Positions 6,837 through 26,513 are shown, numbered from the stretch's first letter. The stretch is 33,685 bases of DNA from a virus (IMGVR_UViG_3300032290_000684:1-33685), one strand, 5' to 3'. Numbers and translations: made by a program. The notes: generated by a model from the letters alone, not told the origin.

Positions 6837-9800
6837 ATGCCTATTAAAGAGTTTACTGGTGAGCTAGACAAACCATTAGAACTAAAGCCGTTTACTGGTA
6901 CGTTAGACAATCCAGAAGATCAAGCAAAAATTGCCCGTGGATTTGTAGGCGGCGCTAAAGATATTGGTGCTAGTTTTGTATCTGGCGTTGGCAATCTCAT
7001 GCAATTGCCAGGTCAGATCTCTGAATTGGTAGGATTTACCAGAACAGGTGATCTTCCAGAGCAACAGAAGACTGGTCTTCAGGCTTTGGGTGCAGACATC
7101 CAGAAGTTTGGTGAAGAAGCTAAATCTCCCACATTAGTTGCTAAAGAACAGTTGCGGGCCAGAGAGATTGCGAAAGCCGAAGGGTTCTTTCAAGAAGCTG
7201 GCGCAGCTCTTAGAACAACCGTTACTGACCCAGCCTTACTGACATCATTTTTTGCCGAGCAGATTCCTAACCTAGTTGGTACATATGGATTCGGTGCTTT
7301 AGGTAAAGGCGGTGCTAAGTTGCTTATGAAAGAAGCAACAGAACAAGCCATGGCAAAGGTTGGCGTAGGTTCAGCCGTTGCTGGCGGTGCAGTCATGCAG
7401 GGTACAGATGTAGGTTATGACACCTATCAAACCATCTACAAACAGTTAAGAGAACAAGGCGTTCCTGATGAAGAAGCTCAAGGAATTGCTTTATCTAAAG
7501 GGCGTGTAGCCGCTATTGAAGCAGCAGGACTAAGCCTAGCATCGGCTAGATTGCCTGGCGGTACAGCAATTGAAAGAGCATTAGTTGGAAAAGGAATGCC
7601 TGGTACAGCAGGATTCCTAAAGAGTACTCTTGGAGAGGCTGCATCCGAAGCTCTAGAAGAAGGTGGCGGAGCGTTTGCTAAACAAGTTGGAATCCAAGAA
7701 GTATTCCCAGAGACTGATCTACTAAAAGGTGTAGGTGCAGCAACCGCATTAGGTGGCTTAGGTGGTGTATTACTAGGCGCTCCAGCAGGAGTGGTAAACG
7801 CACTACGAGCAAGAGGAGAAGTTCCTCCGCCAACTCCATTAATCCCGCCAACAGAAACGCCTACTGGAGTTATTCCTCCAGAAGTCTCAACGCTTCCACC
7901 TGAGACCCCTATTACAGATGTTACCCAAGCCACCCCACCTCAAGTAACTCCGCCAGAAGTTACTCAAGCTCCTCCAGCTCAGGTAACTCCTCCTACATTT
8001 GCAGAGCCAGCAGAAGATCCGTTTAAGAATTACTTTACTGGTATGCCAAAGGGTTCTGAGATCCTATTCCAGAATCGTGATCGTTCTACCCCAGCATCTA
8101 TTGCTCAGATGCAAAGCATTGCTTCTGCGCCAGACTACAAGCGGGTTAGCTACTCCAGAGACTTTGGTAATGGTGCGCCTGTAGTTATCAGCGACATTGA
8201 TATAGAAAGCTCATTGGCTAAATATCCAGATAGTCCTATTGGCGTTACTGGTGCAAAAGACTTTGCTGTATTGCCTAACGGACAAAGCGTTCCCATGATG
8301 TATGCCGTAGTTGAAAACGGAGTTTTGCTTACATCCAACAACGCAGACGGATCTAAGAGAGCGCTATACGAAGATCCAGATAAACCAGGATTGCGGGCTA
8401 TTGCTGGTAATGGACGGATTGCTGGCATTACTAAAGCATACACAACCCCAGAAAATTATGAGGCAGCAGAGAAATACAAGAGTGACCTGATTGCCGATGC
8501 TAAAAATTTAGGCATTGATCCAGAAGTAGTCAATAAAATGACAGCACCTGTTTTAGTTCGGGTGATGCCTAAGTCTTACCTAACACCTGATATCGCAGAT
8601 CTTTCGAATAGACCTACAGTTGCCAGACTGTCTCCCGTAGAAACTGCCAAGAATGATATCCGTAGGTTTGACTTAGGAGGACTTGAGTTCAACGAAGATG
8701 GCACTCCATCAGGGAAAACCCTAATGCAGTTCATCAATGCGATGCCTGTTGAGGAACGAACCGAACTAACGGATAAGTCTGGAAGACCAACCGCACAGGC
8801 TATAGACCGCCTTGCAAACGCTATTTTCCAAAAGGCATATGGTAGTGACTCCCTAATTGATTTATACGCTCAGGCAGCCGATCCTGAAGCCAAAACCATA
8901 TTGAATGCACTAGCTAGAGTAGCGCCTAAGATGGCACAACTAGAAGGTGCTGGTGAGTATGACGTCCGTAATGCCCTAATCCAAGCTGCTGAATTGGCAG
9001 TAAACGCTAGACGGGCTGGCACGAAGTTAGCCGATGCCGCTAAACAGATCAGTATGGATGTAGATCCTAATGCTGGGTTAGTCCTAGATATGTTTGCCAA
9101 GAATATCCGTTCTGGTAAGCGGATTGGTGAGCGCCTAAACGCATTAGCAGATGAGGCTTTGGCACAAGTTCAGGCTGGTGGCACAGATATGTTTGGTGCT
9201 GTTCCTAAGAAGCCATTATCTGAAATCTATAAGGCACTAGAAACCCCACCAGAAGAGCCAGGGTTATTTGCAGAGCCTGTTCCAGAAAAACCAAAAACTG
9301 TTACTGATGATGGAGGAGAAAAACTTTCTTTCCCATTATTTGTTGATATGGCAGATAAGGGATACAAAGTTCTTAGCTTTGATAACCCACGTACTTATCA
9401 AACAAAAAACGGTAACAAGTATAGAACCATTGAAAAAGATGGTGTTCGTCTAGCTTTAAATCCAGGCGAAATTATATTTGCAGATCCAAACTATCCTAAT
9501 CGTTCCCCTAGCTTGGGATATGGCGAATCAAATGAAATAACATGGCACTTTATTGGCGTAGATAAAGACAAACGTAAACAAGGTAAAGCCACTCAAGCTA
9601 TTCAAGACTTAATTGATGTTGCTGACAAAAATAATTACACGCTTTATGGAGAGCCAGCCGAGCTTGAAAAAGGCGGTATGACAGCAGAGCAACTGTCTAA
9701 TTTTTATAGTAGGTTTGGATTCCAGCCAAGTGAAGTAAGCAAAAAAGTTATTATTCGTGAGCCAAATCAAGCCTCTAAAAAAGAAATTAAACCAGAATCA

Positions 9801-12800
9801 GAGCCTATTGACTTTGACATTGATAAATCAAAAGAACAAATTGCTAAAGAAATAGATGGTTTAACTATTCCTGAGCTAGGTCAATGGGCTATTGATAACG
9901 CAAACAATAGTGCGGCAAGAGCAGTTGCCACCAAGGTTAAAAAAGTCTTAGATGGTCTTGCTGCTAAGAAGATGCTTCCAAAAAATGTTCGTGTTCGTAA
10001 TGGCGGTAGCAGATGGAGTACTGGCACACGAGGCAGAACCCGCACTACTTTTAGCAAACTTGGCACTACATTTGAATTAGAGTTCAACGGAATCCCTTCC
10101 GATGGTCAAGCTGACAGATTGACTGGCACAAGATATGTCACCATTTTGCATGAGTTATTGCACGTTGCTACCAATGGTGAGTTGATTTTCCTTAAAGACA
10201 CCAGCCCAATTTACAAAGACTTAAATAACATTCTTACTAAAGTTCGTAAGCAAGTTAAGTTAGATTCTGCTGCTGGCAAAAAAAGTCCAATTCTTTCTAG
10301 TATTGCTCGTGGCGCCAATACCATTAAGAACCCTAAAGAATTGGTCGCTTGGGGTTTAACTGATACAGACTTCCAGCTTTACCTAAGCAACATCAAGGTA
10401 GGAAAGAAGAAAACTTTATTTAATGAGTTGGTAGAAGTATTCCGTAAGTTACTTGGCATTAATGAAGAATATGAGACTGCACTTGAGGCGGTAATTCGTG
10501 CTACCGATCAGATCTTAGAAAAACCAATCTCTGAAATTACTGCGGAAATTGGTAAGACAGGGGTACGTTTTGAAGGCGAAAAGGTTGGCAGACAATTGCA
10601 AACAGATACGCCAGCATTCAAGCGTTGGTTTGGCAATAGCAAAGTTGTTAATGAAGACGGAAGTCCAAAGGTTGTGTACCACGGTACAGATAGGCCAGAC
10701 TATAGTGTATTTAACCCAGCTTCTTATTTTTCAGAATCGCCAAAAGAATCTAGTAGATATACAAATGTAAATGAATTAAAAAAACGGGAGCGTGGATTTA
10801 AAAAATTTACATTAATAGAAGATACTTCTCCTGCTGGCAAAACCGTTCCTTATGCTGGGATTTTAGAAGATCATGGTGATTTTAAGAAAAACGGTATTTA
10901 CGCAACAGACGATGGTGTATATAAATACATAGGCAATGGTAATTTTGAAGCATATAAAAATATTACTTTTGATTACGACACGGCAAAAGATTTGCCTAAT
11001 GGAGATACATCTGTTCAATTAAAAGAAGGGATATCTCAAGATGCTATAGATCGTGTAGAAGGATATAAACAATACCTCAAAGAATACTTCCCTGGCGGTG
11101 AAGGCGGAAGGGTGTATCCAGTTTATTTGTCAATTAAAAATCCTGTTTATTTAGATGCGTTTGAAGCAAATAGACTTGGTTTCCGTCTTGGTGCAACGCC
11201 AGAATTGATTAAGGAAACTATTGATAAATACAAGGCAATGGGCTATGACGGGATTATTACTGAAAGTGATGAGGCACGTCAATATGCTGATGTAAGAAAT
11301 GCTTTAGGTGGCATACCAAAACAATATATTCCATTTGATTCAAACCAAGTTAAGTCTGCTGTTGGAAACAAAGGAACATTTTCTCCTGTTAGAGAAGAAA
11401 TTGATGAAGAAAGTATTGCCCCTATAGCTATGGCTAAAGCTAAGGAGATGTTACAAAAACGCAAGCCTATTCCCATGGGTGCGTTTGCGGACGTAGATCC
11501 AAAGCTAGTCCAATTGGCACAGCCAGTCTTTTATCCACAGCAGAAGACGATTATTGACCGCATAGAGGGATTACGGGATAACTTCTGGAAGAAGACTGCT
11601 CAAGGTATTGCTGACCAATTCCGTGCTATCAAGGACTATACCGAAGAAGGGTATATGCAAGCCCGCCTGTCTAAGACAGTAGACGGTGCGTTAGAGGGAT
11701 TGACATTCTTTGGACAGGTGTTTGACGACAAGGGTGCGTTAAACATTAAACAAGGAACTAAAGGCTTGATGGATATCATGAAGCCGATTGGTAAGGAAGT
11801 AGATCGTTACCAGATGTGGGTTGCACTCAATCGTGAATCCCAATTACCCATGGAAAAGCGCACCAAAATGCCAAACATGGGAGAACTAATCAAGCGTAGG
11901 AATGAGTTTGCAGCAGGGACAATAGATGGCAAACCACGCTTAGAGATCTACGAAAAAGTCCGTAGTGAAATGAACGCTTTGAACAAGTCTGTTCTTAAGG
12001 TTGCCTTAGACAAAGGGCTAATTGATTCTTCCAGACAAAAGATTGATGAGCTAAATACTAGGGACTTCCTAACGACTAAGGATAAGGAAATCCTAACTCG
12101 TCCTTACAGAGAAGAGATTGAGCGTATCGAGAACAAGAAGGCTATGAATGTTACTGAGGAAGATAAAGATATCCTCAAAGATTATCGTGCCTTAATTCGT
12201 GATATCAACTCCCTAAACAATATGACGCCTGACTTGCGTCAAGAGTTGATTGATTATTACACCAATAATCCTGGTGCTTACGAGCGTTTCTCTGCCGACA
12301 TTAACTACATTCCTTTCTACCGTGCCATGGAAGACGGGGATTTACAGGGTGCATCCACAGCATCTGGTCTAACAAACCAACAGTTCTCAAAAGAACTTAC
12401 AGGCGGGGAAAGACCTTATGGCGATTTGATGGAGAATACTCTGCGTAACTGGAGTCATATCCTATCTGCCTCCATGAAGAATCAGGCGTCTAATACCACC
12501 CTAAAGGCAGCCACAGAGTTTGGTGCAGCAATGCCTAACCTAAAAATCCAATACGACTTTATAGATGGCAATGTTGTTAACCGTTCTACGGGCGAAATTA
12601 TTGGGGATGGAGAAGTTAAACCTTATATGACTACTGCCGATAAAGGCACAGTCAAAACTATGAGTGAAGGTCAGCCAATCTACTATCGTGTGCTAGACCC
12701 AATGCTTTTAGACTCCATTAGTTCTATTGGATATATGGGTCCGAAGTCTAAGTTCTTAGACGTAGCCCGTGACTTTAAAAATATGCTTCAGTTTGGTGTA

Positions 12801-14366
12801 ACCGTATCCCCAGCGTTCAAAGTCCGCAACTTGTTCCGTGACTCTATCTCGGCTATTGCAGTAACAGACCTTAAGAAGAACCCATTTACCAACGTTATCG
12901 AGGGATGGGCAGCCAGCGACCGCAACAATCCTGCTCATATCTCTGCCTTGGCTGGCGGTGCAATCTTTAACTTTGGTACTGCTTATGAAGGCGATCAGAG
13001 TAAGTTAATCAAGCGCCTGTTAGATCAGGGTGTAGATGCTAATACCATCCTAGATTCCCCAGAGAAGGTTAAGAAAGGCTTAACAATCCTGTGGGAGAAG
13101 TATAAGGATTGGGGTAATAAGTCTGAAGCCGCTAACCGTATGGCTTTATACAACCAGTTAAAGGCTAAAGGTTATAACCACCTAGAAGCGTCTTTCTACG
13201 CTAGAGACTTACTAGACTTCTCGATGCAAGGTTCATGGCCCGCCTTCCGTTTGGCAGCGCAGACCATCCCATTCTTAAACGCTCGTGTCCAAGGTCTATA
13301 CAAGCTCGGCAGAGACGGTATTACACCGACTACCCGTGTTCTTTACAACACCATCACAGGTAAAGAGATTGAGGCTAATGATGCCCAGAAAGCTCGTGCG
13401 TTTGGCTACACAACCCTAGCCGTAGCCATGGCGTCCATGCTTCTATACCTAACATTCAAAGACGATGAAGAGTTCCAGAAACGGGAAGCATGGGATCGAG
13501 ATAACTTCTGGTGGATTCGTTTGCCAGGTATGGATGCAGCATTCCGTGTGCCTAAGCCATTTGAGATTGGTGCATTCGGTACTATGGCAGAGCGTGTCCT
13601 TGAGCAGATCGTAGATCAAGGCGCTGAAGGTAAAGCCTTTGGAGACAGTATGTTCCGTATGCTCACCGATACGTTTGCTATTAATCCTATCCCACAAGTC
13701 ATCCGTCCACTAGTCGATATCTACGCCAACAAGGACGCCTTTACTGGTGCGCCTATCGAGTCTGCTGGTATGGAAAGGCTATCCAAACAAGAACGTGCAA
13801 CAGACAATACAAGCCCGATTGCACAGGCTTTAGGCGGTCTATCTTCCATCTTTGGAGAGAAGCTATCCCTATCCCCAGTTCAGGTTGATTACGCTATTAA
13901 GGCTTATTTTGGATGGCTAGGGGGTACTGCTACTCAGGCGTCCGTATACGCTACCGTACCATTCAGGGATGGTGCATACCCAGATATCAAGTTAATGGAC
14001 AAGGTAAGCCAAGGCTTTATCAAGAGTCTGCCGTCCGATCAATCACGTTATGTCACATCGTTCTACGAGAACAATAAGGAAATCAATCAAGCCTATGCTG
14101 ATATGCGTCACTACGCAGAGCTTGGAGAGACCGATAAAGTCCAGAAGATCTTAGAAGAGAAGGGCGATAAGATTGCTCTTAACAAGATGTACGATAAGAC
14201 TGCTAAGGAAATGGCTAATGTTCGTGCGCAGATCCGTGTCATTACTAACGATAAGACTATGGATGGCACAACTAAACGAGAGATGATTGATAGGATGAAA
14301 CAGATCTTGTCAATGCTGGCAGAACAAGCAGAAACAACTAGGAAGTCTCTGAAAGCAAACTCATAA
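6837..14366 (+). CDS. Large polyvalent virion protein: ddrB-like ParB, GNAT, zincin HExxH, ART-PolyVal-like and LPD38-like domains
   Basis: 2509 aa. QNRDRS..GAPVV..AGNGR..PVLVR (~8070-8565); RKQGKA..FYSRFGF (~9530-9730); HELLH (10149-10163); TPAFKRWFGNSKVV..VVYHGT..VYLSIKNP..GYDGII..QVKSAVGNKGTF (~10605-11390); WDRDNFW..RVPKPFEIG (~13460 onward). Confidence 0.85.
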   Translation: MPIKEFTGELDKPLELKPFTGTLDNPEDQAKIARGFVGGAKDIGASFVSGVGNLMQLPGQISELVGFTRTGDLPEQQKTGLQALGADIQKFGEEAKSPTLVAKEQLRAREIAKAEGFFQEAGAALRTTVTDPALLTSFFAEQIPNLVGTYGFGALGKGGAKLLMKEATEQAMAKVGVGSAVAGGAVMQGTDVGYDTYQTIYKQLREQGVPDEEAQGIALSKGRVAAIEAAGLSLASARLPGGTAIERALVGKGMPGTAGFLKSTLGEAASEALEEGGGAFAKQVGIQEVFPETDLLKGVGAATALGGLGGVLLGAPAGVVNALRARGEVPPPTPLIPPTETPTGVIPPEVSTLPPETPITDVTQATPPQVTPPEVTQAPPAQVTPPTFAEPAEDPFKNYFTGMPKGSEILFQNRDRSTPASIAQMQSIASAPDYKRVSYSRDFGNGAPVVISDIDIESSLAKYPDSPIGVTGAKDFAVLPNGQSVPMMYAVVENGVLLTSNNADGSKRALYEDPDKPGLRAIAGNGRIAGITKAYTTPENYEAAEKYKSDLIADAKNLGIDPEVVNKMTAPVLVRVMPKSYLTPDIADLSNRPTVARLSPVETAKNDIRRFDLGGLEFNEDGTPSGKTLMQFINAMPVEERTELTDKSGRPTAQAIDRLANAIFQKAYGSDSLIDLYAQAADPEAKTILNALARVAPKMAQLEGAGEYDVRNALIQAAELAVNARRAGTKLADAAKQISMDVDPNAGLVLDMFAKNIRSGKRIGERLNALADEALAQVQAGGTDMFGAVPKKPLSEIYKALETPPEEPGLFAEPVPEKPKTVTDDGGEKLSFPLFVDMADKGYKVLSFDNPRTYQTKNGNKYRTIEKDGVRLALNPGEIIFADPNYPNRSPSLGYGESNEITWHFIGVDKDKRKQGKATQAIQDLIDVADKNNYTLYGEPAELEKGGMTAEQLSNFYSRFGFQPSEVSKKVIIREPNQASKKEIKPESEPIDFDIDKSKEQIAKEIDGLTIPELGQWAIDNANNSAARAVATKVKKVLDGLAAKKMLPKNVRVRNGGSRWSTGTRGRTRTTFSKLGTTFELEFNGIPSDGQADRLTGTRYVTILHELLHVATNGELIFLKDTSPIYKDLNNILTKVRKQVKLDSAAGKKSPILSSIARGANTIKNPKELVAWGLTDTDFQLYLSNIKVGKKKTLFNELVEVFRKLLGINEEYETALEAVIRATDQILEKPISEITAEIGKTGVRFEGEKVGRQLQTDTPAFKRWFGNSKVVNEDGSPKVVYHGTDRPDYSVFNPASYFSESPKESSRYTNVNELKKRERGFKKFTLIEDTSPAGKTVPYAGILEDHGDFKKNGIYATDDGVYKYIGNGNFEAYKNITFDYDTAKDLPNGDTSVQLKEGISQDAIDRVEGYKQYLKEYFPGGEGGRVYPVYLSIKNPVYLDAFEANRLGFRLGATPELIKETIDKYKAMGYDGIITESDEARQYADVRNALGGIPKQYIPFDSNQVKSAVGNKGTFSPVREEIDEESIAPIAMAKAKEMLQKRKPIPMGAFADVDPKLVQLAQPVFYPQQKTIIDRIEGLRDNFWKKTAQGIADQFRAIKDYTEEGYMQARLSKTVDGALEGLTFFGQVFDDKGALNIKQGTKGLMDIMKPIGKEVDRYQMWVALNRESQLPMEKRTKMPNMGELIKRRNEFAAGTIDGKPRLEIYEKVRSEMNALNKSVLKVALDKGLIDSSRQKIDELNTRDFLTTKDKEILTRPYREEIERIENKKAMNVTEEDKDILKDYRALIRDINSLNNMTPDLRQELIDYYTNNPGAYERFSADINYIPFYRAMEDGDLQGASTASGLTNQQFSKELTGGERPYGDLMENTLRNWSHILSASMKNQASNTTLKAATEFGAAMPNLKIQYDFIDGNVVNRSTGEIIGDGEVKPYMTTADKGTVKTMSEGQPIYYRVLDPMLLDSISSIGYMGPKSKFLDVARDFKNMLQFGVTVSPAFKVRNLFRDSISAIAVTDLKKNPFTNVIEGWAASDRNNPAHISALAGGAIFNFGTAYEGDQSKLIKRLLDQGVDANTILDSPEKVKKGLTILWEKYKDWGNKSEAANRMALYNQLKAKGYNHLEASFYARDLLDFSMQGSWPAFRLAAQTIPFLNARVQGLYKLGRDGITPTTRVLYNTITGKEIEANDAQKARAFGYTTLAVAMASMLLYLTFKDDEEFQKREAWDRDNFWWIRLPGMDAAFRVPKPFEIGAFGTMAERVLEQIVDQGAEGKAFGDSMFRMLTDTFAINPIPQVIRPLVDIYANKDAFTGAPIESAGMERLSKQERATDNTSPIAQALGGLSSIFGEKLSLSPVQVDYAIKAYFGWLGGTATQASVYATVPFRDGAYPDIKLMDKVSQGFIKSLPSDQSRYVTSFYENNKEINQAYADMRHYAELGETDKVQKILEEKGDKIALNKMYDKTAKEMANVRAQIRVITNDKTMDGTTKREMIDRMKQILSMLAEQAETTRKSLKANS

Positions 14367-15179: not shown

Positions 15180-15352
15180 TTTTTATACACCTCTTGTAAT
15201 TTAATTTCAATCTCACCGTTTGCTATTTTTGTTAAATACATTCTTAGGACAGAAGATACAGTCAATCCATTTTCTTCTAATATTTTTTGAGCATCATCAA
15301 ATACTTTCTTATTAACCCTAACCCTGACCATTGCATCTAACTGTTTATTCAT
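15176..15352 (-). CDS. RelB/DinJ-like ribbon-helix-helix protein, 58 aa
   Basis: Hand-translated: MNKQLDAMVRVRVNKKVFDDAQKILEENGLTVSSVLRMYLTKIANGEIEIKLQEVYKK. Matches the DinJ/RelB pattern VR.R(I/V)....A..(I/V)L...GLT.S...R..LTK(I/V)A. ATGA-coupled on both sides. Confidence 0.8.
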   Translation of the reverse strand: MNKQLDAMVRVRVNKKVFDDAQKILEENGLTVSSVLRMYLTKIANGEIEIKLQEVYKK

Positions 15353-15507
15353 TTCTTTTGTGTCTTTCTTGCTTCTTTAATTTCTTGGAGCATTTTTTCC
15401 ATCAGGTCTGCGCAATAACCAACAAAAGGAAATTTGGTTGTTCCATTAGCAACACTTCGTGCCAGCCCAATAGTATTTTCAACTGTTCGTATGCTCACCT
15501 TTCTCAT
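15349..15507 (-). CDS. Mini-gene of the KAQEK array, 52 aa
   Basis: Hand-translated: MRKVSIRTVENTIGLARSVANGTTKFPFVGYCADLMEKMLQEIKEARKTQKK. ATGA-coupled. Confidence 0.7.
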   Translation of the reverse strand: MRKVSIRTVENTIGLARSVANGTTKFPFVGYCADLMEKMLQEIKEARKTQKK

Positions 15508-15662
15508 TTCTCTTGTGCCTTTCCTGTTTCACAAAACATCTGCTTGCTAAACGCATCCAATACCGCTTGCCTTGTTCTGTCATCAGGCATCTCTGCCAAT
15601 TCTTTATTTATCAACTCAGTCATTTCTTCTATAAACTGCTTTGCTGTTATAGCTATAGCCAT
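15504..15662 (-). CDS. Mini-gene of the KAQEK array, 52 aa
   Basis: Hand-translated: MAIAITAKQFIEEMTELINKELAEMPDDRTRQAVLDAFSKQMFCETGKAQEK. TAATG-coupled. Confidence 0.7.
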   Translation of the reverse strand: MAIAITAKQFIEEMTELINKELAEMPDDRTRQAVLDAFSKQMFCETGKAQEK

Positions 15663-15874
15663 TATTTTTCCTGTGCCTTTCTTAATGCTTGCTTAATCAT
15701 GTCAGCATCAGTTGTCTTGTTGATGATTAAATCGTGTATTTCCTCATCTGTTAGTGTCTTTACCTTGACCCAATGTATGTTTTCTACAATTAAATCCGCC
15801 CATTTTTGTATCCCATCAAGATGTAGTCCACAAGCAACTGTTCTTAAATGTGAAATGTATTGTTCTCTATTCAT
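15662..15874 (-). CDS. Mini-gene of the KAQEK array
   Basis: 70 aa with VKTLTDEEI and LRKAQEK modules. Confidence 0.75.
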   Translation of the reverse strand: MNREQYISHLRTVACGLHLDGIQKWADLIVENIHWVKVKTLTDEEIHDLIINKTTDADMIKQALRKAQEK

Positions 15875-16188
15875 TATTCTTGTGCCTTTCTTAGTATTGC
15901 TCTAGCATATTCAATCCAGCCCTCATTAGAATCAATATGGTTTACAACTGCATTACCTACTGCAATTATTTCCTCATCTGTTAGTTCTTTTACTGGATGA
16001 TGGAATTTATGGGCTTTCCACCCTTCTTCTTTGCCAGCTTCAAAACCTTTTTTAAACTGTTCGTCTAGTTCTTTTACTGGATGGGTATATAGTGGAATCA
16101 AATCTTTAAATCCCATTTCTTCAAAGTAATCTACACTTCTTGACACATCACCACCTTGGCTCATCCACGCTACTGGTTCATTGTTCAT
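15874..16188 (-). CDS. Mini-gene of the KAQEK array (EPVAW/IPLYTHP type)
   Basis: 104 aa: NEPVAW..IPLYTHPVKEL..HPVKELTDEEI..ARAILRKAQE. Confidence 0.8.
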   Translation of the reverse strand: MNNEPVAWMSQGGDVSRSVDYFEEMGFKDLIPLYTHPVKELDEQFKKGFEAGKEEGWKAHKFHHPVKELTDEEIIAVGNAVVNHIDSNEGWIEYARAILRKAQE

Positions 16189-16418
16189 TTCTCTTGTGCC
16201 TTTCTTAGTATTGCTCTAGCAAATTCAATTAAATCAGAACCAAGTGTGTAAGGAACTTTGTCTTGAAATTGCAGTATTTCCTCATCTGTTAGTTCTTTTA
16301 CTGGATGGGTATAGAGTGGAATAGTATGTTGCTCATCCTGTTCTCTACGCACTACGGCTTTAATAATATGGTCTGCATCCAAAACATCTCGTGAAATCCA
16401 CGCTACTGGTTCATTCAT
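16185..16418 (-). CDS. Mini-gene of the KAQEK array (EPVAW/IPLYTHP type)
   Basis: 77 aa: NEPVAW..IPLYTHPVKELTDEEI..ARAILRKAQEK. Confidence 0.8.
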   Translation of the reverse strand: MNEPVAWISRDVLDADHIIKAVVRREQDEQHTIPLYTHPVKELTDEEILQFQDKVPYTLGSDLIEFARAILRKAQEK

Positions 16419-21377: not shown

Positions 21378-21378
21378 A

Positions 21379-21394
21379 GTGGAAGCGTTTCCAC
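21379..21394. repeat. 16-bp palindrome, copy 3 (GTGGAAGCGTTTCCAC)
   Basis: One mismatch; intergenic, between the terminator-like hairpin and the 21468 promoter. Confidence 0.9.
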
Positions 21395-21467
21395 TTAGTT
21401 TTTTTCTTTATTTAAATCAATAACTTACAATGGTTGTTTTTATTTATTAGGACTTTCCCTAATCCTG

Positions 21468-21496
21468 TTGCATTTTTGTCAGTAGTTTCCTATACT
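21468..21496 (+). promoter_or_regulatory. Sigma70-type promoter for the RNA leader and replication operon
   Basis: TTGCAT (21468-21473), 17 bp, TATACT (21491-21496), preceded by AT-rich DNA. Confidence 0.75.
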
Positions 21497-21508
21497 ACTT
21501 ACGCTGAG

Positions 21509-21535
21509 TTGGCGCTTGGCTTATAATTCCTAGCA
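21509..21535 (+). promoter_or_regulatory. Upstream antisense target module (b1/a1-like)
   Basis: TTGGCG (21509-21514) and TTCCTAGCA (21527-21535) are reverse complements of the bulge CGCCAA and loop TGCTAGGAA of the adjacent RNA. Confidence 0.75.
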
Positions 21536-21540
21536 TGACG

Positions 21541-21633
21541 AGACCGTTAAGGTCTGTTGTTTCGCACTATGTAAGTTTTGCTAGGAAGATTTACACAGTG
21601 TCACGCCAATGAAACGACAGATTTTAGCGGTCT
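21541..21633 (+). ncRNA. C4/CI-type antisense RNA
   Basis: 23-bp outer stem (21541-21563 with 21611-21633, four G-U pairs), 15-bp inner stem with one mismatch, loop-spanning TGCTAGGAA (21579-21587) and 3' bulge CGCCAA (21604-21609). Same architecture as P1/P7 C4 and P4 CI RNA. Confidence 0.8.
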
Positions 21634-21648
21634 TTTGTCGTTTGCAGC

Positions 21649-21830
21649 CTCGATATGTTGGACGGGTAAACACACCAGCGACATAGCGAGTAAGCAGACT
21701 GGGGGTAAGTGGATGTGATACTGCACAAGTAGGTGGCGAAGATAGTGCCTACTCCACGAAAGACTGTCGAGTGCTGTGGCTCCGAAAGAGAAACGGTTAA
21801 AGGCGCACTAGGTAGGCTGAGTGCGCTCAC
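21649..21830 (+). ncRNA. Candidate multi-stem structured RNA or ssDNA element
   Basis: GC-richer segment with no credible + strand gene, folding into consecutive stems and a three-way junction (see findings). Confidence 0.55.
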
Positions 21831-21853
21831 CAAAAGAGAACCTTGATATAACT

Positions 21854-22027
21854 ATGAGAGAAGATAAGAAGAACAAGGATTGGAACATGACTCAGGAAGA
21901 AGTTGCTGAGGCGTTTGGGATTAGTAGGAACTACGTCCAACAGATAGAAAAACGGGCGCTAGAAAAGTTGCGGGCGGAGTTTAAAAAACGTGGAGTGATG
22001 AAAGAAGATTACTTAGGAGAAGACTAG
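21854..22027 (+). CDS. Stand-alone sigma70 region 4-like HTH protein
   Basis: MTQEEVAEAFGISRNYVQQIEKRALEKLR matches the sigma70 r4 HTH. ATG at 21854 preferred over GTG at 21821. Confidence 0.85.
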   Translation: MREDKKNKDWNMTQEEVAEAFGISRNYVQQIEKRALEKLRAEFKKRGVMKEDYLGED

Positions 22028-22264
22028 ATGGAAATACCAATTCCTTTTGTGGGATGGATAGAGGATGATTCACCAGAAGAACTGATTGAATTTCTAAAAT
22101 CAGAATTAAAAAGCAACTCAACGACATACACATTCGGGCATAAGAGAATGCAAGAAATAGTGGATGCGTTAGATAAGTTAAAAGAAGAAAGAGATTTATA
22201 TAAAAATGGATTTAAAGGCGGAGATCAAGAGGCAACTAAAGGTTGTCCCCAAGTCAGTAATTAG
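22028..22264 (+). CDS. Hypothetical protein
   Basis: 78 aa, AGGAG RBS, abuts the previous stop. Confidence 0.65.
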   Translation: MEIPIPFVGWIEDDSPEELIEFLKSELKSNSTTYTFGHKRMQEIVDALDKLKEERDLYKNGFKGGDQEATKGCPQVSN

Positions 22265-22391
22265 TGGTGGTCTAATGACATCGGTTAGTTGGAAAGAAAA
22301 AGCAGTAAAAGCGCAGAAGATCTTAAGTCAGCCCAATGCAAAGCGGTCTGATCTTGAGAACATTCTGGATGAGTTAAGACGATTTCAATAG
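22206..22391 (+). CDS. Hypothetical basic protein
   Basis: 61 aa, fills the gap before the ParB-like gene. Confidence 0.6.
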   Translation: MDLKAEIKRQLKVVPKSVISGGLMTSVSWKEKAVKAQKILSQPNAKRSDLENILDELRRFQ

Positions 22392-22400
22392 GAGAATGAA

Positions 22401-23201
22401 ATGAAACTAAAGCTGGAACAAATTATTATCGACAAGGGAACACAAACCCGTGATGAGATAGATCAGAAGACAGTAACGGAATATTCAGAAGCCCTTTTAA
22501 ATAAAGAAGTATTCCCACCAGTAACTGTGTTTTATGACGGGGTTAAGTATTACTTGGCAGACGGGTTTCATAGGTATTTTGCCCACAAGCAAGTTAAATA
22601 TACTGAGATTGATGTAAACGTCACTAACGGCACGTTGCGTAATGCACTAGAGTTTGCCATTGGAACTAACGACAAACATGGATTAAAGCGTTCTATTAAA
22701 GACAAGCGTAAAGCCGTGCTGATTGCTTTTGATGATGTGGAGTGGGGTTCTTTAACCAATCGTGAGATTGCAAAGCTCTGCCGTGTATCCCATACCTTTG
22801 TGAATGATGTAAAAGAAAGCCTTGAGAAACCAAAAGATAAAAAGAAAAAAGATCCGTTAAAAGCACGGAACAAGAATCAGAACAATCCAACTAATATCGA
22901 CACCGATTTTACCCAAGACGACAAGGTTACAGAACTGCTTGTTACCCAGAAAGAATTAGAAGAAGAGAACACTAAACTGCTAGATCAGTTGGCTCTTAAG
23001 GTGATGGATGTTACGCCAGAACAAAAGAAGATGGCAGAACAAACCATCGAGGAACTACGGGCTGATAACAAACGATTGGAACAAGAACTAGAGTCCATGA
23101 CTACTAGCCGTGATGGTTATATGAGGGAAAATGCTGAGATGAAAAAGCAATTAACTTGGTATAAAAAACAGTTAAGTAAATTTCAAAAGGAAGTAGCATA
23201 A
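22401..23201 (+). CDS. ParB-like protein (ParB/Srx N-domain, HTH, coiled coil)
   Basis: Q.R..ID...V.EY..FPPV.V......LADGFHR N-domain; LTNREIAKLCRVSHTFV HTH; C-terminal coiled coil; AGGAG RBS. Confidence 0.85.
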   Translation: MKLKLEQIIIDKGTQTRDEIDQKTVTEYSEALLNKEVFPPVTVFYDGVKYYLADGFHRYFAHKQVKYTEIDVNVTNGTLRNALEFAIGTNDKHGLKRSIKDKRKAVLIAFDDVEWGSLTNREIAKLCRVSHTFVNDVKESLEKPKDKKKKDPLKARNKNQNNPTNIDTDFTQDDKVTELLVTQKELEEENTKLLDQLALKVMDVTPEQKKMAEQTIEELRADNKRLEQELESMTTSRDGYMRENAEMKKQLTWYKKQLSKFQKEVA

Positions 23202-23207
23202 CGAATA

Positions 23208-23235
23208 CTGACGCTAGGCAGTTTCCTAGCAGGAG
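23208..23235 (+). promoter_or_regulatory. Downstream antisense target module (b2/a2-like) at the helicase RBS
   Basis: CTGACGCTAGGCAGTTTCCTAGCAGGAG is a degenerate copy of 21509-21535. TTCCTAGCA (23223-23231) runs into AGGAG; local hairpin GCTAGG/CCTAGC. Confidence 0.65.
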
Positions 23236-23241
23236 AAAAAT

Positions 23242-24750
23242 ATGCTGAAGTTAAGACCCCACCAAACAGAGGTGGTGGAAAAGATTAGACAGGGATTTTC
23301 TGACGGCCATCGTTGCCAATTACTATATGCCCCAACGGGCTTTGGTAAGACTGAGGTAGCCATGGCAATCATGAAAGCGGTTGCAGAGAGTTATAAAAAG
23401 ACCGCCATGGTAATGGATAGGATTGTCCTGATTGACCAAACAAGCGCCCGTCTAGACAAGTATGGGATAGACCATGGGGTCATGCAGTCTACCCATTGGA
23501 GATACCGACCACAAGAGAGGATTCAGGTCTGCTCTGCACAGACATTGGAAAGAAGAAAGACCTTTCCCGATATCAATCTACTCATCATAGACGAATGCCA
23601 CATAGCAAGGCGTGGCGTTAATAAGTTTATTAAAGACAATCCCCATATAAAAGTCATAGGACTGACGGCATCCCCGTTTACGAAAGGTCTTGGAAGTATC
23701 TATACCCATATCGTAGGTGCTAAATCTACGGGAGATCTAGTAACGGACGGGTGGCTATGTCCTTTGCGAGTCTTTATAGCAAAAGAAATAGACATGGAAG
23801 GTGCTAAAAAGATAGCGGGTGAATGGTCTGCGGATGATGTTACAGAACGAGGCATCAAGATTACGGGAGATATCGTTACGGAATGGGAAAAGAAAACCCT
23901 AGAAGTATTTGGTAAGCCTGTAAAGACGATTGTCTTTTGTTCAGGTGTAGCCCATGGCAGACATCTACAGGCAAAGTTTTTAGAACACGGCTATCGGTTT
24001 GAGTCCATATCCTACAAGGAAGATGATGAATTTAAACGGGATACCATTGAGGACTTTTCCAGACCAGACACGGAGATCCATGGGTTGATTGCTACCGACA
24101 TTCTGACCCGTGGTTTTGACGTAACGGATGTCATGATCGGGGTATCTGCTAGACCTTTTTCAAAGTCCTTCTCATCCCATGTCCAACAGTTAGGACGCAT
24201 CATGCGAACCCATCCTGGCAAGGAGTATGGTTTATGGCTAGATCATTCAGGAAACTACCTACGATTTAAAGACGATTGGGATTCCCTGTATGAGGAGGGA
24301 GTAAAAGAACTTAAGGATGGTGGCGAGAAAGCCAAGAGAGAGCCGACCGAAAGAGAAAAGAAAGAACTGAAATGCCCTGCTTGTGAAGCCTTATGGACTA
24401 GCAAGACAGACAAGTGCGACAACTGTGGGCATATTCGTAAGCGTATGTCATCCGTCATCAACATAGATGGAGAACTAGAAGAACTAGCAGTAAGTAATGC
24501 TAAGTTAAAGATTAGCCCACAAGACTTTTATTCCCAACTACTCTACTACGCTAGGACTAGAGGCATCAAGGACGGGTGGGCTTACCATAAAGTTCGCGAG
24601 AAGTTTGGTGCATTCCCAAGGGGACTTGTGCCGACAGCAAAAGAGCCATCACCAGAAACCATGGGTTGGATTAAATCAAGATCTATTGCGTATCGTAAGG
24701 GTCAAGAAAAACTAGCAAGAAAGATTGAAAACATAAGGGCATCTTCATGA
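23242..24750 (+). CDS. Superfamily 2 DNA helicase (RadD/YejH-like) with Zn ribbon
   Basis: LRPHQ, APTGFGKT, IIDECH, GLTASP, LTRGFD, QQLGRIMR motifs; CPAC..CDNC. Confidence 0.93.
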   Translation: MLKLRPHQTEVVEKIRQGFSDGHRCQLLYAPTGFGKTEVAMAIMKAVAESYKKTAMVMDRIVLIDQTSARLDKYGIDHGVMQSTHWRYRPQERIQVCSAQTLERRKTFPDINLLIIDECHIARRGVNKFIKDNPHIKVIGLTASPFTKGLGSIYTHIVGAKSTGDLVTDGWLCPLRVFIAKEIDMEGAKKIAGEWSADDVTERGIKITGDIVTEWEKKTLEVFGKPVKTIVFCSGVAHGRHLQAKFLEHGYRFESISYKEDDEFKRDTIEDFSRPDTEIHGLIATDILTRGFDVTDVMIGVSARPFSKSFSSHVQQLGRIMRTHPGKEYGLWLDHSGNYLRFKDDWDSLYEEGVKELKDGGEKAKREPTEREKKELKCPACEALWTSKTDKCDNCGHIRKRMSSVINIDGELEELAVSNAKLKISPQDFYSQLLYYARTRGIKDGWAYHKVREKFGAFPRGLVPTAKEPSPETMGWIKSRSIAYRKGQEKLARKIENIRASS

Positions 24751-25532
24751 ATTTTGAAAGATTTGCTGAAATGCACGGGTTAATTATTCAAAGTCTGACC
24801 TTCGACAAATGGACGAGAGTTCCTACAACGTCCCATCCACACAAGAAGAATGGTGCGTATATCTATGACGGGAAGACGGGTGCGGTGCAGAATTGGGCAG
24901 TCCATGAAAAGCCCGTGTCCTGGCGAGGAGATAGCAAGCCTGACCCAATGTGGCAACAGAAAAAGAAGATCGCTGATGCGTCTAAGCAGGAACGACAAGT
25001 CAAGGCTAGTAAGAAAGCGGGATGGATACTGAACAACGCAGAGAAGAAAGACCATCCATACCTTGCTAAGAAAGGTTTCCCCACGGAGAAAGGGTATGTA
25101 TGGAACGATCTCTTGGTTATCCCAATGCGTATCGAGGGCAGTCTGGTAGGGTGTCAATTGATAGACAAGGATGGGAACAAGAAGTTTCTCTCAGGACAGA
25201 TTACCAAGGGTGCGTCTGCCGTCTTTGACAATAAAGGATTGGACATTATCTGTGAGGGGTATGCGACCGCACTATCTATCCGTAGGACTATGAAGTTTCT
25301 CAGAAAGAGATACACGATTCATGTAGCCTTCTCTGCTGGAAATGTTTCTACTTTAGCCACGGGAATAGAGAATTGCGTGATCGTTGCTGACCATGACCCT
25401 GTCGGGATAAAGACTGCCAAATCTACGGGTAAGAAGTATTGGATCTCAGATGTAGATGGAGAAGACTTTAACGACTATGAAACAAGGGTAGGGACAGAAC
25501 AGGCAAGCCTAACCCTCTCCTCTATTTTATGA
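24747..25532 (+). CDS. TOPRIM-domain primase
   Basis: HPYL.KKG, LVIPM, Q.I..DG.K.FL.G, ICEGYATA, AFSAGN, VADHD and DFND motifs; ATGA-coupled to the helicase. Confidence 0.9.
   Translation: MNFERFAEMHGLIIQSLTFDKWTRVPTTSHPHKKNGAYIYDGKTGAVQNWAVHEKPVSWRGDSKPDPMWQQKKKIADASKQERQVKASKKAGWILNNAEKKDHPYLAKKGFPTEKGYVWNDLLVIPMRIEGSLVGCQLIDKDGNKKFLSGQITKGASAVFDNKGLDIICEGYATALSIRRTMKFLRKRYTIHVAFSAGNVSTLATGIENCVIVADHDPVGIKTAKSTGKKYWISDVDGEDFNDYETRVGTEQASLTLSSIL
25336..25351. repeat. Degenerate palindrome copy (CTGGAAATGTTTCTAC)
   Basis: Three mismatches, inside the primase gene, encoding GNVST. Confidence 0.45.
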
Positions 25533-25683: not shown

Positions 25684-25906
25684 TGGGATCGACCTCTTCT
25701 ATTCCATATACTTCTACGATCTCCCAATCTTCTACATCCATGGGACTAGCAACATCCATCCCGTATTCTTCGGGATCTTCCCCATTCGGACAGTCCACTT
25801 CTACATATACTGTGCCACTATATTTGACAGTCATTCCATATCTTTTCATTTCTTTTCTCCCAAGTTTCTGTATAAATTCTTTATCAAACTGCACGACCCA
25901 ATTCAT
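25676..25906 (-). CDS. Hypothetical acidic protein
   Basis: ORF track; alternative start MKRYG at 25849 with a GGGAG RBS. Confidence 0.65.
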   Translation of the reverse strand: MNWVVQFDKEFIQKLGRKEMKRYGMTVKYSGTVYVEVDCPNGEDPEEYGMDVASPMDVEDWEIVEVYGIEEVDPNE

Positions 25907-26124
25907 GCGACCTCCGCAATCCTAAATTCTTCTGGTCTGTATTTGGTTTCCAACCAACCCTGTTGATATGCCTCATGCACATCATCAAAAAACTCGTCTA
26001 GGGCATCTATTGCATCTTCATAACTATCAAAGTATTCGGGTTCAGAATTCCCGTTATCCTGTTCAACAGTCCATGTATTGACCCACCCATCACATACAGT
26101 ATAGGTTTGTATCTCGTATCTCAT
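25903..26124 (-). CDS. Hypothetical acidic early protein
   Basis: MRYEIQTYTVCDGWVNTW..FDSYEDA..FRI; ATGA-coupled start at 26124. Confidence 0.75.
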   Translation of the reverse strand: MRYEIQTYTVCDGWVNTWTVEQDNGNSEPEYFDSYEDAIDALDEFFDDVHEAYQQGWLETKYRPEEFRIAEVA

Positions 26125-26513
26125 AATTTGTCCCATCTTTGATAATTGTCTAAAAGATCTTTGAGCAACATAAGATCTGTATGTTTATCTAATAAACTTT
26201 TAATTTCTAAGGCGTCATCCCTGTCCATGCACACTTCAAAAGTAAACCAACCTGAACCATCTTCTTTATTTATTTTGTTGTGCATATGATAGATATTGGT
26301 CGCACTTTGTAGCATATTGTCTAATGTATCTAAACGCATCATGTCTGGATCGCAGTCGTTCTCTTCTGAAATATCTGTTGCCTTTTCCCATGCCTGATCC
26401 CAACCCTTGTTCCAATCGGTCATATCAAACTCACCAAGATATTTCACATCACCATCTTCTAATTCAACTGCCATACAAACAGATCTTTTCATATCTTCTA
26501 GGGTATATGTCAT
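26121..26513 (-). CDS. Hypothetical acidic protein
   Basis: Likely start MTYTL at 26513 (AGGAGGAG upstream, ATGA overlap). Confidence 0.7.
   Translation of the reverse strand: MTYTLEDMKRSVCMAVELEDGDVKYLGEFDMTDWNKGWDQAWEKATDISEENDCDPDMMRLDTLDNMLQSATNIYHMHNKINKEDGSGWFTFEVCMDRDDALEIKSLLDKHTDLMLLKDLLDNYQRWDKL

Follow-up and report, generated by a model that had tools for sequence, protein, structure and literature searches.

A leader RNA with C4/CI-like complementarity to its own 5′ end, and a separate predicted helicase-leader pseudoknot, in a phage replication operon

Introduction

Which sequences does a structured RNA at the head of a phage replication operon recognize, and does its reach extend to a helicase gene far downstream? 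The question arises from a virus record of 33,685 nt (33.7 kb; the whole stretch analysed, hereafter the window). An earlier note on this DNA had described a promoter, a short target module containing TTGGCG, and a double-stem RNA that exposes exact complements of the module in a loop and a bulge. The CI RNA of P4 has a bulge-plus-loop double-stem shape, and the note likened the new RNA to the C4 and CI types. It also proposed that a degenerate copy of the module at the helicase ribosome-binding site is a second target, through which the RNA could gate helicase and primase selectively. Here we compare the locus with its relatives. The loop and bulge track the RNA's own 5′ end, and the helicase site belongs to a different element.

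Results

The operon and its relatives

The window encodes an endolysin, virion proteins, an ERF-type annealing protein and an exonuclease, followed from 21821 by a rightward operon in the order HTH, two small ORFs, ParB-N-like protein, SF2 helicase and Toprim primase (Table 1). Relatives were chosen by their helicase (63–98% identical; best 80 loci), and the near-complete ones measure 58–65 kb. No tyrosine integrase (PF00589) turned up in 16 relatives, of which 6 are near-complete, no S24 repressor (PF00717) in 16, and no resolvase (PF00239) in 5. Less similar helicases (54–58%) occur in bacterial contigs (L139, L140, L142, L143 and L145; four contigs of at least 250 kb) from Comamonas, Burkholderiales and Methylobacter/Methylomicrobium; the leader RNA and the pseudoknot described below are both absent from these five.

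The helicase and primase genes overlap in the window and are about 720–790 nt apart in L001, L002, L003, L116, L121 and L125, where the extra spacing is probably an inserted gene. Elsewhere in the window, a polyvalent protein of 2509 aa (6837–14366) carries ddrB-ParB, ART-PolyVal and LPD38 domains, and a series of small leftward ORFs (15345–16307) has repeated 21–54-nt segments common to their ends and starts (families D1, D2, D4 and D6).

Table 1. Features of the leader and operon, numbered from the first base of the window.
Feature	Position	Strand	Basis
Predicted sigma-70 promoter P1	21468..21496	+	TTGCAT 21468-73, 17 nt, TATACT 21491-96
5′ hairpin	21503..21520	+	6 pairs, 100% of cells paired (20 sequences)
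Target b1, loop of 5′ hairpin, TTGGCG	21509-21514	+	covaries with bulge
Possible second −10 box TATAAT, uncertain	21522..21527	+	conserved in alignment
Target a1, TTCCTAGCA	21527..21535	+	covaries with apical loop
Long bulged rod	21541..21633	+	fold z = −9.0
Alternative local hairpin of rod	21541-55	+	predicted
Rod outer stem	21542-63/21611-32	+	predicted fold, alignment
Rod inner stems	21564-75/21590-601	+	predicted fold, alignment
Apical loop a′, TGCTAGGAA	21579..21587	+	complement of a1; covaries with a1
3′ bulge b′, with CGCCAA (21604-09)	21602..21610	+	match to own 5′ module
U tract after outer stem, predicted intrinsic terminator	21633..21638	+	kept in homologs
Betaproteobacteria-1 RNA (RF02932)	21651..21772	+	Rfam, 87.6 bits
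Small HTH protein (Sigma70_r4-like)	21821..22027	+	PF04545, E = 2.5e-11
Two small ORFs, family unassigned	22028-22264, 22206-22391	+	no Pfam/PHROG match
ParB-N-like protein	22401..23201	+	phrog_1033, E = 9e-18; PF02195 weak, under its cut-off
Predicted compact H-type pseudoknot	23207..23230	+	S1 23207-10/23219-22, S2 23213-18/23225-30; abuts SD 23231-35
Superfamily-2 helicase	23242..24750	+	ResIII, Helicase_C, phrog_16
Toprim primase, overlaps helicase stop	24747..25532	+	Toprim_3, phrog_2249

A bulged rod follows a promoter-like site and a small hairpin

The promoter, the TTGGCG module and the rod with its exact complements all lie where the earlier note had placed them. The rod folds with −48.6 kcal/mol, and none of 200 shuffled sequences did as well (z = −9.0); just 6 nt of its apical loop are open in the predicted fold. 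The 9-mer TTCCTAGCA occurs exactly at 21527 (+), 21579 (−) and 23223 (+), with no fourth copy in the 33,685 bases, and allowing one mismatch gives 10 matches in the window against 9.6 expected.

About 40 phage homologs share the order of sigma-70-type promoter, small 5′ hairpin, long bulged rod and U tract, always on the helicase strand and at the head of the same operon. A stem-anchored pattern matched 16 viral and 31 metagenome stretches. Over all loci its matches came to 24 distinct sequences, from which we dropped L113 and L127, chance pattern matches with neither the stems nor the upstream module; 22 remained, the window included. On 20 close sequences the three rod helices are paired in 98.3% of cases, both partners have changed in 10 of 38 pairs, and covariation is 0.216 versus 0.121 for shuffled and at most 0.038 for slid alignments; part of the stems was, however, dictated by the pattern used for the search. 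A model derived from the close members gave 25 further matches in 73 other loci. The distant set analysed below holds 20 of these and L148, with three near-copies, one truncated match and one unrelated hairpin omitted; L148 was also the one genome locus out of 14 that matched the rod model at E < 0.01. For 57 loci with at least 4 kb of sequence we also searched without a model: 33 of them have a bulged rod with a T tract ahead of the helicase, and no such rod was found in the 4–5 kb covered at the other 24. An exact search of viral contigs for the window loop returned one match (L089), which the RNA model did not match. Four contig sets from RNA runs (best share 0.10, contigs only) show a relative in an RNA library.

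The strict pattern had no match in GTDB genome contigs, blastn found none among GenBank phages and plasmids, and Rfam returned only chance miRNA matches for the rod. The hairpin RNA is real and lies outside every Rfam family.

A promoter-like match precedes b1 in 33 of 41 distinct homologs, versus 4.4% of random places, and 18 of 20 close members have exactly 12 nt between the end of the −10 box and the b1 loop. Promoter spacing in the homologs would put the transcript start at the first base of the hairpin, which in the window is the predicted start, G21503; a generic promoter scan of the window missed P1. The TATAAT at 21522 has no −35 box and no counterpart in the short-linker homologs that we call type B. 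Its conservation may stem from RNA pairing, and a second promoter there is neither supported nor excluded. At the 3′ end, the U tract of the window is short (4 T). At least 5 T occur in the 8 nt after the rod in 41 of 41 homologs, of which only the 20 close members were picked independently of this feature.

Several other elements lie nearby. A near-perfect palindrome (21378–21395), a possible operator or terminator, sits about 70 nt upstream of P1, and L001–L004 and L084 have a similar one. In L015, two tRNA genes (87–248) stand immediately upstream of the homologous leader RNA. The Betaproteobacteria-1 RNA, which in the window sits in a phage replication-operon leader, follows the U tract by about 15 nt in many relatives, lies 500 nt further in L025, and is missing in others; RF02932 was detected in 7 of 15 and 4 of 14 scanned relatives and is a frequent, not an obligatory, neighbour. 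A tag, GGAGAAACA, heads four leftward genes (20876, 19385, 18287 and 28699, − strand) and never occurs on the + strand; the 5′ arm of the rod holds a complementary TGTTTC, but within the stem.

The loop and bulge track the RNA's own 5′ end

Within the close set, pairing of the apical loop with its own a1 scores −13.0 kcal/mol versus −6.5 for permuted partners (n = 18, p = 1e-5), and pairing of the bulge with its own b1 scores −7.8 versus −5.1 (n = 10, p = 7e-5); both p values ignore relatedness. The commonest close variant has a b1–b′ helix of only 5 bp, G-U pairs included. Every bulge of the distant set (21/21) has a 7–9-nt Watson-Crick match in its own upstream 45 nt, and for the 15 distinct distant bulges the run is 7.4 nt versus 4.5 nt permuted (p = 3e-5, relatedness ignored). 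The match between loop and a1 holds in type C, is less clean in L012 and L062, and fails in type B, whose members have no clear a1. The rods found without a model behave alike: 27 of 33 match their own leader over at least 6 nt, versus 2 of 14 control rods, and the remaining six are close members with pairings that contain G-U.

Shared descent alone is an unlikely cause of this matching because many distinct sets of letters are involved. As judged from the alignments, covariation shows that b′ matches b1 and that, in most types, a′ matches a1. The relatives thereby support the first half of the earlier proposal, in which a C4/CI-like RNA pairs through its loop and bulge with the upstream module.

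The pairing segments also evolve differently from the stems that carry them. Pairwise identity is 0.40–0.71 in the segments and 0.87–0.93 in the rod stems, and the 22 close members hold 15 loop/bulge combinations. Diverging segments in many combinations are as expected of a specificity code.

The helicase site is one arm of a separate predicted pseudoknot

The copy of the target module reported at the helicase is present, with TGACGCTAGGC starting at 23209 instead of 23208, and TTCCTAGCA (23223–31) does continue into the helicase AGGAG (23231–35). What had been taken for a degenerate b2 half, GCTAGG (23213–18), is however the 5′ arm of a hairpin of which the supposed target is the 3′ arm. The hairpin (GCTAGG/CCTAGC) has the loop CAGT, which pairs with ACTG just upstream to give a predicted pseudoknot. 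It was found in 50 of 61 distinct leaders versus 12 of 366 shuffles. In an alignment of 54 leaders, from which 7 lacking the pseudoknot were left out, 10 of 10 pairs change on both sides (S1 4/4, S2 6/6) and covariation is 0.470 versus 0.212. In 30 of the 54 rows the outermost S1 pair is open, which leaves an S1 core of 3 bp. Rfam holds no match for it. Its place is also constant: it starts 0–5 nt after the upstream stop in 33 of 39 loci and ends 10–17 nt before the start codon in 39 of 39, and in four leaders that lack it the gap is just −7 to 9 nt. One other of the 51 window leaders scores equally high (a score of 27, for the leader of the ORF at 25903–26136, − strand), and for that reason we base the case on covariation, not on the score.

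Many loci have the pseudoknot and no detected rod, and the sequence comparisons indicate that it is independent of the rod RNA. Stop read-through or a frameshift from ParB into the helicase is ruled out, because the gap modulo 3 varies (24/12/3 of 39). The pseudoknot is likely a translational operator or coupling device that would be opened by ribosomes ending ParB.

We then asked of the relatives whether loop and helicase site change together. For the window loop, the helicase site is the best within 5 kb (13 bp with G-U pairs, −17.1 kcal/mol). Across the close set, loops score −8.4 against their own helicase leader and −8.1 when permuted (n = 12, p = 0.36), and without the window and L125 p rises to 0.97; in the distant set, p is 0.17 for the loop (n = 20) and 0.86 for the bulge. 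A run of at least 7 nt occurs in 2 of the 33 loci that have both RNA and helicase leader, the window and L125, which share one loop. The site stays while the loop varies: L001, L002, L003 and L053 keep TTCCTAGCA at the helicase despite other loops, and L001–L003 combine helicases that are 98% identical and the same helicase site with different loops. Conversely, both arms of the helicase-leader stem have changed in L116 and L121, and their loops do not match. There is no partner for b′ at the helicase site, where the longest run is 4 nt. Loop and target thus covary at the upstream module and not at the helicase, an outcome that the earlier note had itself named as refuting its proposal. For lack of loop/leader covariation (p = 0.36 and 0.17) we reject the distant helicase target, the selective gating of helicase and primase built on it is not supported, and the match itself is explained by a conserved, independent pseudoknot of which the site is the 3′ strand.

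In a narrower form of the proposal, the helicase site was captured recently, in the lineage of the window and L125 alone. There, the loop would invade the pseudoknot, cover part of the SD and repress helicase-primase translation, and its pairing is stronger than the S2 hairpin (−8.8 kcal/mol). Moreover, the 9-nt run is reached by the window loop alone among 1891 loop-by-leader pairs. We still regard such a target as very unlikely: the 9-mer is a common S2 variant (6 of 61 leaders; also L137), the neighbouring loop variants are 1–2 bases apart, and the site is paired inside the pseudoknot, besides the single loop, the four loci that keep the site with other loops and the missing b′ partner noted above.

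Other second targets were sought more widely. No covarying two-part target was found within 5 kb on either strand (n = 30, p = 0.81). In G001, G002, G004 and the window, foreign RNAs equal the RNA's own best non-self site in 9/32, 10/25, 16/32 and 10/31 cases, respectively. TGGCG in the Betaproteobacteria-1 RNA is ruled out as a target, being conserved whatever the bulge.

Discussion

A candidate attenuator of the replication operon

We lean towards the view that the conserved leader RNA attenuates the HTH-ParB-helicase-primase operon as a C4/CI-like antisense RNA with a single target. The sequence presents a promoter-like site, the b1 hairpin, a1, the bulged rod, a U tract and then the operon genes. 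On a new transcript, the a1–a′ and b1–b′ helices may form first, while the 5′ arm of the rod folds on itself. This pairing in cis would delay the outer terminator stem, and polymerase would read through early on. Rod RNA, terminated or processed, would then accumulate and pair in trans with b1 and a1 of new transcripts, which would free the terminator to form and shut the whole operon. An incoming phage with matching loops would be shut likewise. The helicase pseudoknot would act separately, as a likely translational operator or coupling device. Folding of truncated transcripts predicts that a1–a′ appears at 88 nt and b1–b′ at 110 nt, with the full rod following at 131 nt; if loop penalties are left out, the cis helices together (−39.4) come close to the rod (−39.0). 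Both pairings could coexist with the outer stem if the RNA made a U-turn at the bulge.

The covariation fits pairing in cis and in trans alike and cannot tell them apart. Attenuation entirely in cis would have the pairings act within one nascent transcript, as a kinetic or protein-controlled antiterminator with no trans RNA and no phage specificity. Every covarying partner indeed lies within 110 nt of one transcript, the cis intermediates are predicted by folding, and the searches of the flanking 5 kb, the three larger genomes and the window gave no other target. We nonetheless think it unlikely that cis pairing is the whole story: the stems change more slowly than the pairing segments, which also recombine, and a cis helix gives no obvious reason for this. 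Our argument for a role in trans is exactly this, that the segments diverge, the rod stems do not, and the segments recombine in 15 combinations.

The folding results bear as well on a different proposal, in which the element is a stand-alone structured small RNA of about 135 nt. The b1–b′ and a1–a′ helices would then be tertiary contacts of a constitutively terminated transcript with some other job (stability, protein binding), and the operon promoter would lie further down. No other final fold comes near the full rod in stability, the lengths of linker and outer stem would permit a b1–b′ kiss in cis, and a second small-RNA family stands directly behind. This proposal seems to us quite improbable, given that the element always heads the same operon on the helicase strand and that the stretch from the rod to ParB gave no + strand promoter in the generic scan, although the same scan missed P1.

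Returning to the antisense attenuator, immunity in a lysogen is unsupported because neither integrase nor repressor was found in the relatives. A broader picture, which we offer tentatively, is that the RNA alone serves as replication lock and exclusion system in these phages of about 60 kb, in which no integrase or CI-type repressor was found. Rod RNA would act in trans, and the freely recombining bulge and loop would serve as an address in two parts, by which co-infecting relatives fall into exclusion groups, while the separate pseudoknot would make helicase synthesis depend on ribosomes that finish ParB. The close members supply a natural series of matched loops and targets (15 combinations), with which swaps could test directly whether a1/b1 pairing acts in cis or in trans. 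To our knowledge, the role of the upstream a1/b1 pairing in P1 is itself unsettled.

Two further points concern the helicase leader. A minimal pseudoknot at a phage helicase start is gained as a second uncatalogued element. The locus also teaches that a 9-nt match to a distant ribosome-binding site may reflect local structure, so that a covariation test is needed. The literature searched describes neither the rod RNA nor the pseudoknot, although either could be listed in a supplement to Weinberg 2010, Weinberg 2017 or Fremin 2023; six motifs were absent from the Fremin 2023 supplement files searched.

Comparison with known systems

The nearest precedent for the helicase pseudoknot is that of gene 32 in T4 and T2, likewise a compact H-type knot upstream of the start of a phage replication gene. 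According to PMC3014915, the gene 32 knot is located some 67 nt upstream, where it serves to nucleate gp32 along an A+U tract. In contrast, the predicted helicase knot stands 0–5 nt past the upstream stop and 10–17 nt before the start. The STAXI motif (Weinberg 2010) is also a pseudoknot near DNA-handling genes, at times near c4 RNAs (PMC2864571), but STAXI is tandemly repeated and the helicase knot has no Rfam match.

For the rod RNA, we drew the likeness to P4 CI/seqA and P1 c4/a1b1 from PMC4825925, PMC5320573, PMC12197685, PMC5499578 and PMC2864571. With C4 (RF01695) the rod shares two exposed segments, a′ and b′, complementary to upstream a1 and b1. Loop differences could confer specificity on the rod, as they do between C4 of P1 and of P7 (PMC5320573, PMC12197685), and c4-a1b1 rows also show target-module hairpins (PMC2864571). 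C4 is, however, made of a trio of stem-loops (P1, P2, P3) with a tetraloop and the a′ and b′ loops (PMC5320573), whereas the rod is unbranched with one apical loop and one 3′ bulge. C4 has a2/b2 at the ribosome-binding site of the controlled gene, and for the rod RNA no covarying second site was found within 5 kb or in G001, G002, G004 and the window; C4 controls the icd-ant antirepressor operon of a temperate phage, and the rod precedes HTH, ParB-like, helicase and primase genes. The form of C4 of about 77 nt is cut by RNase P at a GGW 5′ end, while the stem in the window begins AGACC. The C4, c4-2 and c4-a1b1 covariance models matched nothing in the window at E ≤ 1, nothing on 201 nt at E ≤ 10, and none of the distant types. 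The rod RNA is not a member of the C4 family: it has no model match and lacks the three-stem shape, the downstream target and the antirepressor operon.

P4 CI is a small RNA in a replication-operon leader that pairs with a site upstream of itself and causes premature termination, halting transcription of the replication genes through pairing with leader sites (PMC4825925). The rod likewise has an upstream, seqA-like target in the same leader, and by analogy its position and U tract fit premature termination. P4 CI also has a downstream seqC, whereas no seqC-like site was found for the rod; the rod's outer stem is 20–24 bp and ends in a U tract, no integrase was found in its relatives, and it has no Rfam or sequence match. 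We regard it as a new, uncatalogued form of the C4/CI type that has a single target. Its occurrence in phages that yielded neither integrase nor repressor suggests that RNAs of the C4/CI type may time replication or exclude kin outside classical lysogeny.
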